Below, piece after piece: positions 1 to 8,820 of a stretch of 31,736 nucleotides of DNA; position 1 is the stretch's first letter, and every line of letters starts with the position of its first letter. A program made the position numbers and the translations under genes. The stretch is taken from positions 1-31,736 of the forward strand of contig DRLX01000158.1 of assembly GCA_011322715.1 (NCBI GenBank), read 5' to 3'. The stretch comes from Desulfobulbaceae bacterium. Lineage in GTDB: Bacteria; Desulfobacterota; Desulfobulbia; Desulfobulbales; Desulfobulbaceae. Below the pieces are notes generated by a model. It saw only the letters and a program-made list of their open reading frames with translations, searched no databases and was not told the origin of the DNA.

Positions 1-1224
1 ATGCTGCTGGGCTTTTTTGGGCTTGTCGCCCTTGCCGGTCTCCTTGTCGGACTCCATGGTTTTTTTGTCGGCTATCGACATGTATACAATGTCACCAGGG
101 AAATATCCTGGGGCATGCTTATTTCGGCATACATCTTCTGCGTTGTTACTTCCACCGGGCTCTGTATTGTTTCGTCCTTTGGTCATGTTTTTGGTAATGA
201 AGCCCTCATGCCGATAGCCAAACGTGCGGTTTTCCTGTCCATAATTTTTTTATTAGGCGGATTTTGCATCATCTTTTTTGATATTGAAAATCCCTTCAGA
301 ATGGCGATCTGGAATGTGATTTCCCCTAATTTCAGATCGAATATGTGGTGGATGGGAACCTTGTACGGTGCCTATATGGTCCTTATGATGATTGAGTATT
401 ATTGCCTGCTTAATCAGAATCATACCGTGTCCAGAATTGTTGGTTTTATCGGCCTGTCAGTAGGTATTGCCGCCCATAGTAACCTCGGCGGTATCTTTGG
501 TATGCTTCATGGCCGTCCCTTCTGGTATGGGCCCTATCTGCCGATCTACTTTATATTTTCCGCCGCCATGTCCGGTGGTTGTGCTATTTTGTTTTTTACA
601 ACGCTCGCGGCCAAGATTAATCCGGAGATTATGAATCAGCGCATGGAGCGTGCGGTAAAGTCTCTGACCCTGCTGACCGTCTATTTTATCGCCACCATAA
701 TCTTTTTTACTATCTGGAAGGTCATTACCGGTCTGGTTTCCGAAGGCAAGTATCCGGTGATCATGTCGTTTCTGACCGGTGATTATGCCGTTAATTTTTG
801 GTTTTTTGAGATTTTCCTCGGTATGGTTCTGCCGCTTTTTCTGCTTATTGCTTCAAGGGGTAGAAAATATACGCTCATCATGTGGACAACCGGCCTTATG
901 ATGGTGGGGATTTTCTTTATGCGTTACGACATTGTTATCCCCGGGCAAATGGTTCCGGTGTATCATTCCCTTGGCGTTGTTGAGGCCTCCCATATAATGT
1001 CCTATGTTCCCTCTTTTCATGAGATTATGATATCAATCTGGGGCCTTGCCTTTATTATAATTGCCTATCTGGCCGGTGAAAAGATGCTGAACGGCCATCA
1101 GCTGCAGAAACATGAGATTGTTCCCGAAGGTGCCTATATCTGTCCTGGTTGCGGTGGTATCCACTATATGAAAGAGGGCGAAACCATGGAAGAGGCGATG
1201 AAACGTCAGCATGGGAACTGGTAA
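1..1224 (+). CDS. NrfD/PsrC/DsrP-family integral membrane anchor (quinone-interacting subunit); 5' end may lie outside the window
   Basis: Polytopic hydrophobic protein with NrfD-like segments (VTREISWGMLISAYIF, SNMWWMGTLY, AHSNLGGIFG, RPFWYGP, FFMRYDIVIPGQ); adjacent to a 4Fe-4S partner gene. Confidence 0.85.
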   Translation: MLLGFFGLVALAGLLVGLHGFFVGYRHVYNVTREISWGMLISAYIFCVVTSTGLCIVSSFGHVFGNEALMPIAKRAVFLSIIFLLGGFCIIFFDIENPFRMAIWNVISPNFRSNMWWMGTLYGAYMVLMMIEYYCLLNQNHTVSRIVGFIGLSVGIAAHSNLGGIFGMLHGRPFWYGPYLPIYFIFSAAMSGGCAILFFTTLAAKINPEIMNQRMERAVKSLTLLTVYFIATIIFFTIWKVITGLVSEGKYPVIMSFLTGDYAVNFWFFEIFLGMVLPLFLLIASRGRKYTLIMWTTGLMMVGIFFMRYDIVIPGQMVPVYHSLGVVEASHIMSYVPSFHEIMISIWGLAFIIIAYLAGEKMLNGHQLQKHEIVPEGAYICPGCGGIHYMKEGETMEEAMKRQHGNW

Positions 1225-1332
1225 GTTGAACCCAAGCAATGTTCAGGCTGCAGGCGATATTTCGTCAATAATGGTTGCGCAGGCATCCACAGTATCCTGT
1301 TGAATCTATAGAATTGTGTAATGGAGATTAGA

Positions 1333-2157
1333 ATGAAATTTCCTAAAATAAATTTCGATGAAATGGAAAATGAGGGCACTAAATCGGTGACGTCCAGGGA
1401 AAGAAGAAAATTTCTGAAACTTGGGTTTGCCGTTGCCGGTGTCTATGCGGGAGGGAAATTCCTGTCCCTGACCTCTCTGGTTGGTTCGGCCCAGGCCTCA
1501 ACCGGTGCGGAAAGGGCAGTGAAAGACCTGTACAGCCCTCATTACAGTATGGTGATCCGCCAGTCCATGTGCATTGATTGTGAGCGGTGTGTCGAGGCAT
1601 GCATCAAGACGAATGATGTCCCGGAATATGGCTACAGAACACGGATCTTGACCAAGAAGTATTCCGGGACCCTGGACAAGGCGGTGGAGTTTATCCCGGT
1701 CCTCTGTAACCATTGCAATAATCCACCCTGTGTGCGCGGCTGCCCGACCAAGGCTACATATAAGGATCCGGTTACCGGTATTGTTCGTATGGAGAGTAAG
1801 AAGTGCATCGGCTGTAAGACGTGTATTCTTGCCTGCCCTTATGATGCCAGGTATTTTGATGAAGAACGGCATGCCATAGACAAGTGTGATTTCTGCTGGG
1901 ACAAACGATTGTCGAAGGGGGAAACCCAGACCGGTTGTTCCGCCGCCTGTCCAACGGGCGCCCGTACCTTTGGTGATCTCAGTGACCCGAATAGTATTGT
2001 TTATAAGCTGGTTCATCAGATTCAGGAAGAGGTCTGGGTGCTTCGTCCCGATGACAATACAAAACCCAATGTGTTCTATATGAAGGGAACCATCGGGTCA
2101 GTGGATGCCATCCTTAAGGGATCTAAATTCAAGTATTTTGATCCGACAAAGGTATGA
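1333..2157 (+). CDS. Tat-exported 4Fe-4S ferredoxin subunit (NrfC/PsrB/DsrO-like)
   Basis: Twin-arginine motif SRERRKFLK; four Cys groups CIDCERCVEAC, CNHCNNPPCVRGC, CIGCKTCILAC, CDFC...CSAAC; GGAG precedes ATG 1333 (ORF track start 1321 is the alternative). Confidence 0.9.
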   Translation: MKFPKINFDEMENEGTKSVTSRERRKFLKLGFAVAGVYAGGKFLSLTSLVGSAQASTGAERAVKDLYSPHYSMVIRQSMCIDCERCVEACIKTNDVPEYGYRTRILTKKYSGTLDKAVEFIPVLCNHCNNPPCVRGCPTKATYKDPVTGIVRMESKKCIGCKTCILACPYDARYFDEERHAIDKCDFCWDKRLSKGETQTGCSAACPTGARTFGDLSDPNSIVYKLVHQIQEEVWVLRPDDNTKPNVFYMKGTIGSVDAILKGSKFKYFDPTKV

Positions 2158-2697: not shown

Positions 2698-4704
2698 ATG
2701 GGAGACATGAGCGCCACTATTGGGAAAAAGGCAGGAGTCGTCGTCACTTTCTTTTTCATTGTTCTGACTGCCTTGGCCATGAGCAGCCACAAGGCCCTGT
2801 CCATGAGCAATGAGGACTGTCTGGAGTGCCATGGTGATGAAGATCTCACCAGAGAAGCGGATGACAGTTCCGTGTATGTCAATGCTGAGGTTTTGGCAAA
2901 GTCCGTTCATGCCGATGAAGAATGCGTTTCCTGTCATCAGGATGCCGACACCGAAGATGAGCATCCTCCTAAATTGAAAAGAGTCAACTGTGCGGAATGT
3001 CATGATGATATTGGTGCAATATACGAGAAAAGCATTCATGGCAAGGCACGTTCCAGGGGCGATGCCCTGGCCCCTTACTGTTCTTCCTGCCATGGGACTC
3101 ATGATATCCTGCCGCCCAATGACCCAAAATCAACAGTATATGTCACTAATATTCCCTTAACTTGCGGACGGTGTCATCGGGAAGGCTCTCCGATGACCAA
3201 GACCCATGAGGATATTGATCAACATAATGTTCTGAAAAATTTTTCCATGTCCATGCATGGCAAGGGGTTGCTGAAATCAGGTTTGATTGTTGCGGCCGTA
3301 TGTACCAGTTGTCATACCTCCCATAACGTTCGTCCCCATACCGATCCGGAATCTTCAACCAACCCTAAAAACGTTGCGAAAACCTGCATGCATTGCCATG
3401 CCAATATTGAAAACACGCATAGAAAAGTCATCAGAAAGTCACTCTGGGAAAAAGAGCCGCACAAAATTCCCTCCTGTATTGAATGTCACCAGCCCCATGA
3501 ACAGAGTAAGATCGGCTATCAGGGCAAGTTGTCCGATGCCTACTGCCTGAAATGCCACAGCAATCCCAATCTTGTCATGCCTGATGAGGAAGGCGGTGTG
3601 AAAAGCCTGTATGTGGATACGGATGAGTATGATGAATTTAGAGGGACTTTGCACAAAAAAAATAAAATTGCCTGCGTCAAATGTCATTCCAATATGGATA
3701 GCGCCAGAGATCCCGTCTGCAGGGGATCCGGACCGGTGGATTGCTCCGCCTGTCATCCGCAGCAGAGTGATATTTACGCAAAAAGTATCCATGGCAAACT
3801 GCTGGCCGAGTTGGACCCGAACGCTCCGGGATGCACCGATTGTCACGGCAAGCACAACAATATGTCCAAGGCCAATCCTGATTCTCCGATCAATCCGATA
3901 AATATTCCCAATCTCTGCGGCGCATGTCACCAGGATGGGAAAAAAGCCGCAGTCAGAATAAAGGGAGGAGAACGGAAAATAGTTGCCACCTATTCCATGA
4001 GTATCCACGGCAAAGGACTTGTCAAAAGTGGTTTACTGGTTTCCGCCACCTGTGCAAGCTGCCATACCGGCCATTCCATACTACCGCCTTCTGATGCTGA
4101 GTCGACCGTTAACCGCAATCACGTGAGTGATACCTGTGAAACCTGTCATTATGGTGTTGCCAGGAAAATTCAGCAGTCGATCCACAATCCTCCTGTCGGC
4201 GCCGACACCTCACGCTTTCCCATCTGCAGCGACTGCCATTCAGCCCATGGGGCGGCACGTGTTTCCGGGGCAACATTCAGAAAACAGCAGGCGAGTGAAT
4301 GTGAAAAATGCCATGAGGAGCAGGTGGAAACCTATCGTGAGAGTTATCACGGCAAGGCGTCCATGTTGGCCGGTGGTGAACGGGCGGCGCAATGTTCGGA
4401 CTGTCACGGCAGTCATACCATCCTGGCGGCCACGGATCCCGATTCAACCCTTGCCGGTCTCAATGCCGTCAAGACGTGTCGAAAATGTCACCCCGGAGCA
4501 AATTTAAGTTTTACCACCTATCGGACCCATGCCACCCACGGTGATAAGAAGCGCAATCCCGATATGTATTATGCATTCTGGAGCATGACCAGCCTCCTGC
4601 TGGGCACTTTTTCACTGTTTGGGCTGCATACCTTGCTCTGGTTCCCGCGATCTTTCAAGGAACGTATGAAGATGATACGCAAGGCCCGCGAGCAAAAAAA
4701 GTAG
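2698..4704 (+). CDS. 19-heme cytochrome c with N-terminal signal/anchor and C-terminal transmembrane helix (CbcL-like cytochrome c moiety)
   Basis: 19 CxxCH motifs counted by hand; repeated S(I/M)HG distal-His motifs; C-terminal YAFWSMTSLLLGTFSLFGLHTLLW helix; alternative start 2707. Confidence 0.92.
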   Translation: MGDMSATIGKKAGVVVTFFFIVLTALAMSSHKALSMSNEDCLECHGDEDLTREADDSSVYVNAEVLAKSVHADEECVSCHQDADTEDEHPPKLKRVNCAECHDDIGAIYEKSIHGKARSRGDALAPYCSSCHGTHDILPPNDPKSTVYVTNIPLTCGRCHREGSPMTKTHEDIDQHNVLKNFSMSMHGKGLLKSGLIVAAVCTSCHTSHNVRPHTDPESSTNPKNVAKTCMHCHANIENTHRKVIRKSLWEKEPHKIPSCIECHQPHEQSKIGYQGKLSDAYCLKCHSNPNLVMPDEEGGVKSLYVDTDEYDEFRGTLHKKNKIACVKCHSNMDSARDPVCRGSGPVDCSACHPQQSDIYAKSIHGKLLAELDPNAPGCTDCHGKHNNMSKANPDSPINPINIPNLCGACHQDGKKAAVRIKGGERKIVATYSMSIHGKGLVKSGLLVSATCASCHTGHSILPPSDAESTVNRNHVSDTCETCHYGVARKIQQSIHNPPVGADTSRFPICSDCHSAHGAARVSGATFRKQQASECEKCHEEQVETYRESYHGKASMLAGGERAAQCSDCHGSHTILAATDPDSTLAGLNAVKTCRKCHPGANLSFTTYRTHATHGDKKRNPDMYYAFWSMTSLLLGTFSLFGLHTLLWFPRSFKERMKMIRKAREQKK

Positions 4705-4796: not shown

Positions 4797-5642
4797 ATGA
4801 GTAAAACAGAGACAGTCTATGTTCAACGATTTAATGTTTTTGCACGGGTTCTCCACCTTACGGTTATTATCAGTTTTTTGACCCTTGCTCTCACCGGCAT
4901 GGCCCTGAAATTTGCCGATGAACCATGGGCCGGCGCCATAGCCGGTTTTTTCGGGAGCTTCAGGGTCCTTGGCATTCTACACAGGATAGGAGCCGTCCTT
5001 ACCTTCGGCTATTTTTTCTTCCATTTTATTCTGATCTTCCAAAACTGGCGTAAAAGCGATAAGTCTTTTGTCGGTTTTATCATCGATAATACCATCGGTA
5101 TGGTGCCGAATCTGCAGGATGCAAGAGAAATAGGCCAGACGATTAAATGGTTTGTCGGTAAGGGACCCAGGCCCAGATACGGCCGTTGGACCTACTGGGA
5201 AAAATTTGATTATTTTGCCGTATTCTGGGGTGTTGCCGTTATCGGCCTTACCGGACTTTGTCTCTGGTTTCCCACCTGGGTCACACAGTATATCCCAGGC
5301 TCCTGGTTGAACATTGCCACTATTATCCACAGTGATGAGGCGTTGCTGGCCACGGGATTTATCTTTACCATTCATTTCTTCAACACCCATATCCGACCTG
5401 AAAAGTGGCCTCTGGATCGTGTCATCTTTACCGGTTCCGTTACCCTTGAAGAACTCAAACATGAACGACCGCGTGAATATGAAATGCTGGTTAAGGAGGG
5501 ACGCCTGGATGATGTCATTGTCGACAAACCGCCGACCTGGCTGGTCGTCTTTGCCTATGTCTTCGGATTCGCCGCTCTGACTATCGGAATGGGACTTGTT
5601 TTCCTCATTATGTATACGATTTTTCAGCGTACATTCGGTTAA
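4797..5642 (+). CDS. Diheme cytochrome b, FdnI/HydC/CbcL type
   Basis: Multiple TM helices with four placed His (RVLH, GILH, TIIHSDE, FTIHFFNTH) and RWTYWEKFDYFAVFWG; directly follows the multiheme gene. Confidence 0.88.
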   Translation: MSKTETVYVQRFNVFARVLHLTVIISFLTLALTGMALKFADEPWAGAIAGFFGSFRVLGILHRIGAVLTFGYFFFHFILIFQNWRKSDKSFVGFIIDNTIGMVPNLQDAREIGQTIKWFVGKGPRPRYGRWTYWEKFDYFAVFWGVAVIGLTGLCLWFPTWVTQYIPGSWLNIATIIHSDEALLATGFIFTIHFFNTHIRPEKWPLDRVIFTGSVTLEELKHERPREYEMLVKEGRLDDVIVDKPPTWLVVFAYVFGFAALTIGMGLVFLIMYTIFQRTFG

Positions 5643-5693: not shown

Positions 5694-5984
5694 ATGGAAC
5701 ATAAATTGCCGTTGCATACTCGCCTGGGTATTTACGCCACAGGGGCAATTTTGGGTATACTGTGTTTTGTTATGCTGAAGACTTGTGCGAGTGCCTTGTA
5801 TTACGGTGGAAAGACGACAAGCGATGAAATTAGAGATTCGTATACGGCCGGTTTTACATCCGGTTTGAACGGAGGTGACACAGTTAATCAGTCGGTTAAA
5901 AGTTTGTCGAATCCGCTTCTTGTAAAAATGTATCGAAAGGGTTTTCGTGACGGCAGAGATCGTAAGGGTTATGGGAAAAAATAA
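5694..5984 (+). CDS. Small hypothetical membrane-anchored protein
   Basis: 96-aa ORF, AGAGGA upstream, one N-terminal hydrophobic helix, two Yx(2)GFx(2)G motifs; co-oriented between cytochrome b and rhodanese genes. Confidence 0.6.
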   Translation: MEHKLPLHTRLGIYATGAILGILCFVMLKTCASALYYGGKTTSDEIRDSYTAGFTSGLNGGDTVNQSVKSLSNPLLVKMYRKGFRDGRDRKGYGKK

Positions 5985-6017
5985 AAGAGAAAATGAAATA
6001 CTCTTAAAGGAAGAAAA

Positions 6018-6818
6018 ATGAAAAAAAACAGTCTATTCTTGGTACTGTTCTCTGTGCTTTTCAGCTGGGTAGGCGCATTGCCCGGTCCTGTCCTGGCCAT
6101 GGTTATCGATATTCCGACTATTGATGCGGATATGTTGAAGTATGAACTGTATCACGGCGCTCCCATGGTCCTGGCCAATGCCCTGAGCCCCATAGAATTC
6201 AAGGATCTTACCATCAGGGGATCAGTAAATATTCCATCGAGTAAGGTGGAAGGTAATCCAAACCTGCCCGAGGATAAAAGCACCTTGCTTGTCTTTTTCT
6301 GTAAAGGTCCCGGCTGACTCAAGAGTACTCTGGCCGCCAGGAAGGCGGTTAAACTCGGCTATACAAATGTGAAGCTGTACAATGGCGGGCTACCCGACTG
6401 GATTAGAAAGAGATATCCCGTTTTGCGTACCGTCAACTATCCAAAGGTCAATATCCCAAAAGTATTTCCCGAACATGTGTATAAAAATATCAACAATGTC
6501 GTCATCCTTGATATCGGCGGAGAGGCATTGCGGCGGATAGGAGAATTTCATACGGGTGATGTCATCCATATACCCCTTGATGACCTTGAAGAAAAATACA
6601 CAGCTCTTCCCAAGGACAAAAAGATTGTTATCGTTGATGTAATGGGTAAACAGGAGAATATCGCCGGTAGGTTCCTGACCATGAAAGGGTATACTAATCT
6701 GGCTGAGATGGCCGGCGGCGGACGTGCCTGGTTTAAGACCATTCGGGTGAATGAGATGGAAAAAAGGAAAACCGGCGTTCGGTCGGGGAAAGCGGAAGGA
6801 AAAATGAAGAACAAATAA
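6018..6818 (+). CDS. Exported tandem-rhodanese sulfurtransferase, putative selenoprotein (Sec100 from UGA at 6315-6317)
   Basis: ORFs 6018-6317 and 6369-6818 are in one frame; the gap translates LKSTLAARKAVKLGYTN, completing the rhodanese motif FFCKGPG-U-LKS..AA..A...GY.NV..Y.GG.P.W; SECIS-like hairpin follows; N-terminal signal peptide; 266 aa in total. Confidence 0.85.
6315..6356 (+). promoter_or_regulatory. Bacterial SECIS-like element
   Basis: Upper stem GGCCGCC / GGCGGTT with loop AGGAA starting 21 nt after UGA and G at loop position 2; lower stem GAGT/ACTC. Confidence 0.75.
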
Positions 6819-6897
6819 TCGTATCGTGAATTTTCTCCGGCATGACCTCATTTTTTGTGGTTCATGTTGTGATTGGAGCTGTATAGTATTCCATCAG

Positions 6898-6930
6898 CCT
6901 GCCGGTCTTGTTGACCGGCAGGTTTTTTTT
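6898..6930 (+). terminator. Rho-independent terminator closing the cytochrome-rhodanese operon
   Basis: 10-bp stem CCTGCCGGTC / GACCGGCAGG, 5-nt loop, T8 tail. Confidence 0.88.
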
Positions 6931-7254
6931 ATTGTGGCCGCGTGAGGATAATTTATCAACGTATTGCTGGTTTTATTTGTAACTCGGCTGCAAGATGTGT
7001 ATATATTCGTCGTCCAGAATACTGTTTACGTTGAGGGCTCTTGAAAAAATAATTATTCCATTCTCCTTGCCTTTACTTCAGCTTTTACGGTGTAAACAGG
7101 AGTACATGGCGTTGCTATGTAATCATCTTTTACGTTTTGAATTTGTGGAAAAAATCGGCGTATTATTGGAGAATTATTTTACTAATGCCCGTACACCTGT
7201 TTCTTTTGGTTATCCTTGAGATGCCCGATGCATCCGGATAGGGGTAAGAGGAAA

Positions 7255-8820
7255 ATGATAGTGAAAAAAAATGCGTTTTATTTTGTCTGCTGCATGTTTA
7301 TAGGTTTTTCGGCGGTGAACGGACATGCCGCTCCCATAGGTTCGGGTCGTTCAATTGTGCAGAAAAATTTTCAACAGCTTGTCAAAACTAATGGTTGTCC
7401 GGGCTGTGATCTCGCCGGTGCCGTCTTGACTAGAGTTGATCTTTCCGGCGCTGATCTTTCCGGCGCAAATCTGGCCGGTGCCAAATGCAATCTGGCTGAT
7501 TTTTCCGGCGCCAATCTCAGAGGTGCGAACCTCCAGGGTGCAAATCTCGGCGGGGCCGACCTGGCCGGAGCTGATTTGACCGGTGCCAATCTGACCGGTG
7601 CAATTCTGCAGGGCGCCTATTTGAAAGGGGCAAAGATCGACGGTGTGCTCACCGATCAAGCCGGTGACCAGGACAGTGAGGCAACCGGTGAAACCGTGTT
7701 TGTCCCGGATGGCGCAAAATCTAAACACGCACCTTACAGTCAGGAAGTGGCTATTGAAAATAAGCGCGATCTTGAAGAAACTCCGCCGACGGTATCAAAA
7801 AACCAGGACAAGAACACCGACAATGTGCGAGCAAAACAGCCGCCGGTTGCTCCCATGACCGACTCAAAGCATCCTGTGGCCATGGCTGATGCCGTGGTCC
7901 CATCGTCATCGGCGACTTTAAGTAACCAAAAAACTGAAGAAGAAACGGCGGTTGTACTTAATGAACAGAAAAAACAGCCTGTTGTCGCTAAGAAGACAGT
8001 GGCGGCAACACCGGAAAAAGTTGAGCTGGAACCGTCATCGGAAACCACCATCGGAGTGGATAAGGATTCGGCCGTGCATGACATGATCGCCCGGATTGAG
8101 GCGGATTCTCCGGATAAAAATCCTCCGGCAATAAAGAAAAAAGCACGTGCCGATGTCGCCGGCCCCGACGCAGGAAAACCGAAGATGGTTCAGGAGAAAA
8201 GCAGACCGAAGGCAACCACCGTCCCTGTCGTGGAAGCAAGTCCTGAAATACACGCAACAACTCCAAAAACTGCAGAAGCAGGTAGGCAACAGAACAAAAC
8301 AGTATCGGTAACGACCAAAACCGACGGGCAGGCAACAAAGGTCGCCGCACCTGCGGCCGGTGATGTTGCTGCAACAGCCGGTACTCCGGGAGCCGCTGTA
8401 AGTCAGAGTGTAGCAGGTATAAAAAACGGGGCCGGCCCACTCCTCTATACCGTGGAAACACCGGCTCAGGCTGCAGCGGAAAAACAGGCCCTTGTCGATC
8501 GGTTGCTCGATACCGATGCCTGCGTGGAGTGTGATCTTGCCGGGGTGGACCTTTCCGGCAAGCGACTTAAAGGTGTTGATCTTGAAAGGGCTAATCTTGC
8601 AGGCGCTGATCTGTCGGATACCAATCTTTCCGAGGCCAACCTCAAAGGTGCCGATCTTGCCGGAGCCAATCTCAGAGGCGCCGATCTCTCCGAAGCTGAT
8701 CTGTATAAGGCCGACCTCACCGACGCTGATTTAACCGGTGCGGACTTGTCTGAGGCATCAACGGATTCGGCTGATTTTACCGGTGCCCAAGGCGTACCCG
8801 TTACCGGAGATAACAAGTAA
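7255..8820 (+). CDS. Secreted protein with two pentapeptide-repeat domains joined by a long low-complexity linker
   Basis: A(D/N)Lxx repeats near both termini, preceded by CPGCDL and CVECDL; signal peptide; AGAGG before ATG 7255 (track start 7216). Confidence 0.85.
   Translation: MIVKKNAFYFVCCMFIGFSAVNGHAAPIGSGRSIVQKNFQQLVKTNGCPGCDLAGAVLTRVDLSGADLSGANLAGAKCNLADFSGANLRGANLQGANLGGADLAGADLTGANLTGAILQGAYLKGAKIDGVLTDQAGDQDSEATGETVFVPDGAKSKHAPYSQEVAIENKRDLEETPPTVSKNQDKNTDNVRAKQPPVAPMTDSKHPVAMADAVVPSSSATLSNQKTEEETAVVLNEQKKQPVVAKKTVAATPEKVELEPSSETTIGVDKDSAVHDMIARIEADSPDKNPPAIKKKARADVAGPDAGKPKMVQEKSRPKATTVPVVEASPEIHATTPKTAEAGRQQNKTVSVTTKTDGQATKVAAPAAGDVAATAGTPGAAVSQSVAGIKNGAGPLLYTVETPAQAAAEKQALVDRLLDTDACVECDLAGVDLSGKRLKGVDLERANLAGADLSDTNLSEANLKGADLAGANLRGADLSEADLYKADLTDADLTGADLSEASTDSADFTGAQGVPVTGDNK

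Follow-up and report, generated by a model that had tools for sequence, protein, structure and literature searches.

The window analysed here, a stretch of 31,736 nucleotides of forward-strand DNA, comes from a Desulfobulbaceae MAG of 3.19 Mb in 595 contigs that is 84% complete. Positions 6018-6818 hold one gene, not two. Read on the forward strand with TGA as selenocysteine (U), they give 266 residues with a lone internal TGA at residue 100, in the string FFCKGPGULKS (Table 1). Translation table 11 divides the same interval into an ORF of 99 aa and another of 149 aa. Public gene calls split the orthologues likewise, into pieces of 99-106 aa and 149-155 aa, and in one example of public annotation the 149-aa piece is labelled 'hypothetical protein'. 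The protein is a tandem rhodanese, predicted to be exported, and its gene is the last of four co-directional genes, after those for a multiheme cytochrome c, a cytochrome b and a small membrane protein.

Table 1. Features of the rhodanese gene and its operon in the 31,736-nt window.
Feature	Position	Strand	Basis and remarks
19-heme c-type cytochrome (19 CxxCH), first gene of the module	2698..4704	+	Heme motif count; Pfam/NCBIfam multiheme matches
FdnI/Ni_hydr_CYTB-type membrane cytochrome b	4797..5642	+	PF01292, TIGR01583; four hydrophobic segments
Small single-helix membrane protein, 96 aa	5694..5984	+	Conserved beside the rhodanese
Shine-Dalgarno-like AAGGAAG	6007..6013	+	4 nt upstream of the ATG; read from the sequence
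Tandem-rhodanese selenoprotein, predicted to be exported, single CDS	6018..6818	+	266 codons and TAA stop; one TGA; orthologues (n=9) of the same structure
Predicted signal peptide, Sec-type, residues 1-27	6018..6098	+	By eye; predicted cleavage between VLA and M
N-terminal rhodanese domain, about residues 34-135, predicted redox-active	6117..6422	+	Pfam, alignment to solved rhodaneses, AF2
Active-site loop C95-K-G-P-G-U100-L-K-S103	6300..6326	+	Two residues longer than the canonical loop; 6mxv alignment
UGA almost certainly read as selenocysteine (Sec100)	6315..6317	+	TGA conserved in orthologues; Cys in homologues
SECIS-like hairpin	6333..6349	+	6-bp core stem; 8 bp in the window (6331-6351); AGGAA loop at 6339-6343
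C-terminal rhodanese domain, about residues 150-245	6465..6752	+	Asp207 (6636-6638) replaces the catalytic Cys
Intrinsic terminator ending the operon	6896..6932	+	Terminator scan; 12-bp stem, then a T-run

The cytochrome operon around the gene, which the earlier note had picked out as its setting, is a conserved module with a fixed order: cytochrome c, cytochrome b, small protein, rhodanese. The 19-heme cytochrome begins with a signal or anchor and ends in a hydrophobic helix, and no in-frame TGA was found in its reading frame. The small membrane protein has no Pfam or NCBIfam match, and its gene overlaps the start of the rhodanese gene by 14 nt in loci L058 and L066-L068, by 4 nt in L064 and L065 and by 35 nt in L063. 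All nine loci with a Sec rhodanese have the four-gene module (in L054 the last 108 residues of the cytochrome match are missing), as do L058 and L066, two of four orthologous loci examined whose rhodanese is a Cys or Cys-less form. The other two, L067 and L068, show just cytochrome b, the small gene and the rhodanese because their contigs end inside or before the upstream cytochrome gene. Across the 24-sequence clade sampled the module is conserved, each locus showing as much of it as its contig end permits. Distant Cys homologues (40-53% identity) have other contexts, outside cytochrome operons. The module is preceded by genes of DsrP/NrfD-like and DsrO/NrfC-like type and by a c7-type cytochrome. 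No molybdopterin subunit, porin or Rieske protein is encoded at the locus, and Pfam and NCBIfam searches of the operon revealed no DsbD-like or thioredoxin-like partner. Predicting a complex of the rhodanese with the small membrane protein, for which the Cys orthologue pair P0018/P0190 stood in, gave a score of 0.00, a value that counts neither way.

Export of the rhodanese to the periplasm is suggested by its N-terminus, where a putative signal peptide, MKKNSLFLVLFSVLFSWVGALPGPVLA, would be cleaved before a Met. Inspection by eye finds a KK pair in the n-region (MKKN), a hydrophobic core and an AxA-like site, all three of them conserved in orthologues; a twin-arginine motif and a lipobox, sought in the same way, are both absent from the N-terminus. 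Pfam Rhodanese (PF00581) matches the protein twice (62.3 bits, gathering cut-off 22.2); the first of these matches, residues 57-130, crosses the TGA. An AF2 model built with 45 homologues has a mean pLDDT of 91 and places two rhodanese domains after a signal helix. All Foldseek matches to it are rhodaneses, with probability 1.0 to solved ones and single-domain TM scores of 0.7-0.8. In the alignment with 6mxv, YC-GSG-FRS stands against FCKGPGCLKS with two gaps, the canonical loop being C-G-S-G-F-R-S. Cys95 falls on the Cys of 6mxv, the catalytic residue that opens the loop behind the central strand, Lys102 occupies the usual Arg position, and Sec100 is among the inserted loop residues. The second domain resembles the rhodanese domains of NADH oxidase and CoA-disulfide reductase. 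At its catalytic position paralogues have Cys (YCNSGGRS), and Asp is found there in 51 of 54 homologues, in keeping with an earlier suggestion that this domain is probably non-catalytic. Asp207 in place of the catalytic Cys marks domain 2 as an inactive module; together with Cys95 in domain 1, it makes the N-terminal domain the active one and the C-terminal domain the inactive one.

The internal UGA almost certainly encodes selenocysteine, judging from what orthologues and homologues carry at the same place. A six-frame search of 60 related genomes returned four same-genus orthologues of 73-89% identity, with one TGA each, and three orthologues of 45-53% identity without a TGA. When GenBank MAG and metagenome loci are included, the Sec orthologues number nine, at 65-100% identity, and every one of them has its TGA in the same place. 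In uninterrupted full-length homologues from the protein database, the UGA column holds Cys in 53 of 54, and paralogues likewise have Cys. The earlier note had expected a second Cys in homologues (CxGPxC.KS) and had set against it the case of Trp, Arg or Gly at this column; the consensus proved to be C-K-G-P-x-C-x-K-S. Column 95 is also Cys in 53 of the 54, and the rest of the loop is strongly conserved (G97 in 54, K102 in 50, S103 in 52), so that the family motif can be written [FY]-C-K-G-x-x-[C/U]-x-K-S. The lone homologue without Cys95 (Asp95) is also without Cys100 (Met100), a joint loss that would be expected if the two residues form a working pair. At the population level, codon 6315-6317 is invariant across contigs from four independent vent-metagenome studies; many nearby variants affect the third base of a codon, as do five of the six located from the TGA to a GTG at 6369. 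DNA of the locus recurs in hydrothermal-vent metagenomes from seven studies, all of it in DNA contigs, and a search for RNA runs holding the locus returned none.

A hairpin follows the UGA, with the sequence GGCCGCC-AGGAA-GGCGGUU and a loop that begins 21 nt past the codon. Bacterial SECIS elements, by the bSECISearch-type criteria that reportedly go back to Zhang and Gladyshev in 2005, are stem-loops just past the UGA with a G in a small apical loop. The hairpin at 6333-6349, with two G residues after the first loop base, fits these rules, which is what the earlier note had proposed. A hairpin of 6-8 bp with an AGGAA loop is found in every Sec orthologue, 19-35 nt past the UGA. Its folding energy against shuffles is unremarkable (z = -1.1), and comparative tests were used instead for that reason. 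The six core pairs form in all eight distinct orthologous sequences, and core pairing in these sequences is abolished when the partner strand is slid along. One of the six pairs shows a compensatory change from C-G to U-A, produced by two Ala-codon substitutions that are both synonymous. In the wider family a hairpin occurs at the same offset in 16 of 16 Sec-bearing members collected, several of which have an fdhF-like GGUCU loop, and it is mostly missing in Cys forms; the corresponding difference in energies between Sec and Cys members (p = 0.02) is weak, and the sequences are not independent. The matched control within the operon is a stronger test than this wider-family energy comparison. 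Four Cys or Cys-less orthologues in the same operon lack the hairpin despite a similar peptide, AAK-x-AI, and the energies are -9.2 to -14.8 kcal/mol in the Sec genes against -1.6 to -5.7 kcal/mol in these Cys or Cys-less orthologues. The hairpin is thus both conserved and specific to UGA-bearing genes, with the caveat that its GC-rich arms coincide with Ala codons. An Rfam scan of 5900-7000 gave sub-threshold chance matches, and no model recognised the hairpin.

The genome also encodes a selenocysteine system. The earlier note had made its reading depend on selA, selB, selC and selD, and the genome was found to contain SelA (558 bits), SelB (297 bits, above the cut-off, its gene broken off where the contig stops), two SelD genes (357-367 bits) that contain one in-frame TGA apiece, and a tRNA-Sec (72 bits) for which ARAGORN gives the anticodon TCA. 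A maximum-likelihood tree built from 78 family members groups the nine Sec orthologues in a single clade (support 100/99) nested inside all-Cys clades, with other Sec-bearing members on separate long branches. The nesting of the Sec clade among Cys forms points to a single Cys-to-Sec replacement, which probably took place once in this vent Desulfobulbaceae lineage. Independent adoption of Sec elsewhere in the family would be the simplest reading of the same tree. Taken as a whole, the explanation that we favour is of one gene whose UGA is recoded to Sec and whose product is an exported two-domain rhodanese with an active N-terminal and a non-catalytic C-terminal domain. We put its probability at roughly 0.85.

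A mechanism can be sketched on this basis. SelA, SelB, SelD and tRNA-Sec would recode the UGA at 6315, guided by the hairpin at 6333-6349, and Sec100 would substitute for the second, family-wide conserved Cys, five residues beyond the catalytic Cys95. Cys95, lying in an anion pocket with Lys96 and Lys102, would form a persulfide with sulfane sulfur from polysulfide, S0 or thiosulfate. Sec100 would then attack the Cys95 persulfide, with sulfide being released or passed on and a Cys95-S-Se-Sec100 bond being formed, and the menaquinol-linked cytochrome b and the 19-heme cytochrome c would re-reduce the S-Se bond, or would take up electrons if the reaction is oxidative. This sulfur-carrier or reductase version is offered tentatively, at somewhat under even odds. 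More generally, the function is probably one in periplasmic sulfane-sulfur redox chemistry, and the adjacent cytochromes may be the electron partner. Sec in selenoproteins is normally a catalytic redox residue. In Geobacter, a Cys/Sec pair in MccSep reduces polysulfide, and the gene cluster of this protein also has a rhodanese-like gene and a cytochrome b. In Desulfobulbales, periplasmic rhodaneses are highly expressed with sulfur metabolism. It would be going further to regard the Sec-rhodanese as the catalytic end of a molybdenum-free respiratory module not described before, and we consider this a long shot. Were it true, electrons would run from menaquinol through cytochrome b and the 19-heme cytochrome c to a selenenylsulfide centre of Cys95 and Sec100. 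In the periplasm of vent Desulfobulbaceae this centre would reduce (or, in reverse, oxidise) elemental sulfur or polysulfide, and the Cys-to-Sec switch would represent a recent upgrade of it. In P0039, an orthologue encoded in the same operon, both redox residues have been lost. The module can thus apparently exist with a redox-dead rhodanese, and this warns against over-reading a catalytic role.

Several other readings of the locus deserve weighing, beginning with those that concern the codon itself. The interval could be a nonsense pseudogene, or it could be two genes, a 99-aa rhodanese stub and an independent 149-aa protein that starts at GTG 6369; table 11 and public gene callers do give two ORFs, and the hairpin is ordinary in stability when compared with shuffles. 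Such a stub, however, would stop within the active-site loop, without the helix that completes the domain. That helix, which follows the rhodanese loop, is made up of the residues from the TGA to the supposed second start, LKSTLAARKAVKLGY, and these residues are alignable to solved rhodaneses. The supposed start has no Shine-Dalgarno sequence upstream, and since GTG 6369 is replaced by GTA or GTT in three orthologues, it cannot be a conserved start. The TGA, for its part, is kept in nine orthologues down to 65% identity, on contigs of four studies. Of the 17 codons between the TGA and GTG 6369, 15 were compared across the nine orthologues, and they evolve like coding sequence, with variable positions at the third base in 12 of 15, at the first in five and at the second in three; by this pattern the LKSTLAARKAVKLGY segment is under coding constraint. 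Conservation of the TGA, third-position variation and the lack of conservation of GTG 6369 make the two-gene and pseudogene readings untenable together. The proposals that the frame runs continuously through UGA 6315, and that the intervening codons supply the rhodanese helix, have therefore held up: the TGA is the sole one in 266 codons, and the orthologues are alike. Readthrough might nevertheless insert something other than Sec, by near-cognate suppression with Cys or Trp or under a variant code, given that homologues carry Cys at the UGA column and that the chemistry of insertion is invisible in a sequence. A variant genetic code can be ruled out, as 7 of the window's 24 large genes end normally at TGA, which indicates the standard code without reassignment of TGA. 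Suppression is very improbable in turn when the genome has a complete Sec system, on which selD itself relies, and when a hairpin stands at SECIS distance in UGA-bearing genes specifically.

The alternative that carries most weight accepts a genuine selenoprotein and disputes its task. The protein may be a C-x4-U thiol/selenol-disulfide oxidoreductase acting on a periplasmic protein or small thiol, or it may handle selenite, tellurite or arsenate, instead of carrying sulfur. For the loop, the curated model that comes closest is TsoB, in which a rhodanese with UxxxxU is fused to a DsbD-like part; this would suit an oxidoreductase, although the operon holds no DsbD-like or thioredoxin-like partner. 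Reduction of selenite and tellurite has been connected with the ext cluster of Geobacter, where ExtI occurs together with ExtH, a rhodanese-like protein. Cdc25 and Acr2 illustrate a trend to longer rhodanese loops for larger anions, and the widened loop of the present protein may be likened to this trend. The distant Cys homologues, too, lie outside cytochrome operons. Set against these points are the tight, clade-wide linkage of the gene to a quinol-type cytochrome b and a 19-heme cytochrome, and the expression of Desulfobulbales periplasmic rhodaneses with sulfur metabolism. We regard a role outside sulfur carriage as rather unlikely, to be kept in mind all the same.

For the preferred reading, a Sec rhodanese in a cytochrome operon, the consequences are mainly ones of recognition. 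Because public gene calls are all cut at the UGA and no NCBIfam cut-off is reached, these proteins are invisible as selenoproteins in Desulfobulbaceae genomes, and the invisibility extends to studies that count periplasmic rhodaneses in sulfur metabolism. At this locus Sec has recently and cleanly replaced Cys as the second redox residue in a rhodanese loop that has been widened. As the gene belongs to a tightly conserved operon with a quinol-type cytochrome b and a 19-heme cytochrome, it is a candidate, open to experiment, for redox chemistry of sulfur, polysulfide or selenium in the periplasm of vent bacteria that disproportionate or respire sulfur. Knowledge of selenoproteins is not changed in kind by this locus; what holds some interest is the clean change of the second loop residue from Cys to Sec, along with the conservation of the cytochrome module.

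Known rhodanese systems share parts of this arrangement. In Wolinella succinogenes, Sud is a periplasmic polysulfide-sulfur transferase of rhodanese fold that feeds a membrane respiratory complex; it is a single-domain, single-Cys protein and serves the molybdoenzyme Psr. The present protein can be likened to it as a candidate periplasmic sulfur carrier of rhodanese fold, at a locus that encodes no molybdopterin subunit. Bovine TST, A. vinelandii RhdA, E. coli SseA and F. tularensis 6mxv also have two folds per chain, one active and one inactive. In TST, RhdA and SseA the active rhodanese domain is C-terminal, and the domain order is therefore reversed relative to the present protein, whose active domain is N-terminal. 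Domain packing differs from that of the classical tandem rhodaneses as well (two-domain TM about 0.3-0.39, rmsd about 16 A), and the present protein has a loop two residues longer, a second redox residue and a predicted export signal. In Geobacter sulfurreducens, the ext cluster likewise combines a periplasmic rhodanese-like protein with a quinol-linked cytochrome b and large multiheme cytochromes. There, however, Sec is in the pentaheme cytochrome MccSep (ExtKL), whereas here it is in the rhodanese, and the ext cluster has cytochrome b/Rieske, in contrast to the present locus, which is without Rieske or porin. ExtH of G. sulfurreducens is a 49-kDa rhodanese-like lipoprotein, and its comparison with the present protein is by description. 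A search with a triple-rhodanese paralogue found no Geobacter entries among its best 120 matches.

Among catalogued Sec rhodaneses, a 2026 review lists five rhodanese-like selenoprotein forms: form 1 with UxxS, forms 2 and 4 with UxxG, form 3 with CxU (NF041203) and form 5, TsoB, with UxxxxU (NF045694) (PMC13188914). Of the curated models, TsoB matches the loop region best (residues 83-139 against profile positions 104-160), and in its rhodanese loop the two redox residues are likewise separated by four others. The present protein scores 46 bits against its cut-off of 805, is without the DsbD-like membrane domain at 266 aa, has one Sec (C-x4-U) rather than two (UxxxxU), and is not encoded in a three-selenoprotein operon. 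The top NCBIfam match overall is NF041203, rhodanese_LYCAU, which likewise has Cys and Sec in the active-site loop; the present protein reaches 53.6 bits where 115 are required, its spacing is C-x4-U against C-x-U, and a model of a single domain with 126 positions is set against a protein with two domains. Accessible literature on Sec rhodaneses gives no description of a tandem-domain form with a signal peptide or of the cytochrome operon. A recent genomic survey that covers the sulfur genes of cable bacteria and other Desulfobulbales treats periplasmic rhodaneses and leaves selenocysteine unmentioned. In deltaproteobacterial symbionts, a 2007 report placed rhodanese-related sulfurtransferases among the most abundant selenoproteins. 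Form 1, for which the reference is WP_010941598.1 (PF00581; Zhang and Gladyshev, 2005, as listed in PMC13188914), has in common with the present protein the PF00581 domain, a single Sec followed by x-x-Ser (here U100-L-K-S103), a deltaproteobacterial lineage, and prediction from a Sec/Cys pair and a SECIS hairpin; membership of the present protein in this form is by motif rather than by alignment to WP_010941598.1. Sec rhodaneses, described in the earlier note as known and often mis-annotated, are an accepted and catalogued selenoprotein class, as the five forms of the review and the split public calls of the orthologues attest, and the present protein is a mis-annotated member of it.

The loop that carries Cys95 and the Sec residue at column 100 (numbering of the main gene) varies among orthologues. 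Among the Sec orthologues, the one that diverges most (65% identity, from 'Deltaproteobacteria bacterium S145_26') has the loop FCKGLPTULKS, a C-x5-U arrangement one residue longer than that of the main gene. In the orthologue P0039, both loop residues are gone together, with Asp in place of Cys95 and Met in place of Cys100. Its gene still lies within the cytochrome b - small protein - rhodanese module, and P0039 appears to be a redox-dead rhodanese retained in the operon.

Sec at the same loop column also occurs outside the orthologous group. Related Desulfobulbales genomes encode lipoproteins of ~445 aa, composed of an N-terminal domain followed by three rhodanese domains, the first of which has the motif YCGGPTU(G/T)M(S/T); their genes have a hairpin with an fdhF-like GGUCU loop. 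These lipoproteins scored below every NCBIfam cut-off, and many of their database entries are fragments of 249-251 aa. One Thermodesulfobacteriota MAG carries a Cys-form tandem rhodanese back-to-back with two adjoining 'rhodanese' ORFs (192 and 246 aa) that together look like another UGA-split Sec gene, with a predicted FCGGPTUGMS loop; methyl-accepting chemotaxis protein genes flank the group. Two fusion proteins (~570-610 aa) join the same tandem rhodanese to an N-terminal part that we take to be transglutaminase-like. [quoted passage not shown] In the source genome, since each of the two selD genes has an in-frame TGA, both copies of SelD are themselves selenoproteins.

Coordinates of the features discussed (L numbers, loci from the source genome, related genomes and metagenomes)
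Feature	Location	Strand	Remark
selD (selenophosphate synthetase)	L018, G000:C594:5868-6797		one in-frame TGA
selD (selenophosphate synthetase)	L019, G000:C265:5955-6881		one in-frame TGA
Triple-rhodanese lipoprotein gene	L044:1111-2442	-	
Triple-rhodanese lipoprotein gene	L041:1096-2637	-	
Triple-rhodanese lipoprotein gene	L046:1135-2487	-	
Triple-rhodanese lipoprotein gene	L027:2503-3615	+	
P0039	L068:1622-2416		
C-x5-U loop	L056:8280-8315		
Back-to-back group (Cys-form tandem rhodanese, split pair)	L059:7328-8650 and L059:9001-9729	- and +	Thermodesulfobacteriota MAG
Fusion protein with tandem rhodanese	L033:1-2151		related genome
Fusion protein with tandem rhodanese	L036:1453-3162	-	related genome
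4Fe-4S protein, 341-aa c7-type multiheme cytochrome, DsrP/NrfD-like membrane protein, DsrO/NrfC-like 4Fe-4S protein	window 1-2157		
Same upstream gene group	L052:136-4370		
Pentapeptide-repeat protein, 534 aa	window 7216-8820		

Directly 3' of the rhodanese gene lies that of the pentapeptide-repeat protein, which has repeat blocks at each end and a low-complexity middle, and which is kept at this position in orthologous loci (L052, L053, and L065). Upstream, a 540-bp gap separates the 19-heme cytochrome gene from the four-gene group listed above for window 1-2157, which is similar to the 'dsrOhPh-tetrahaem cluster of unknown function' reported from cable bacteria (PMC13047784). The triple-rhodanese lipoproteins, for their part, resemble in size and type ExtH, the 49-kDa rhodanese-like lipoprotein of the Geobacter sulfurreducens ext cluster.
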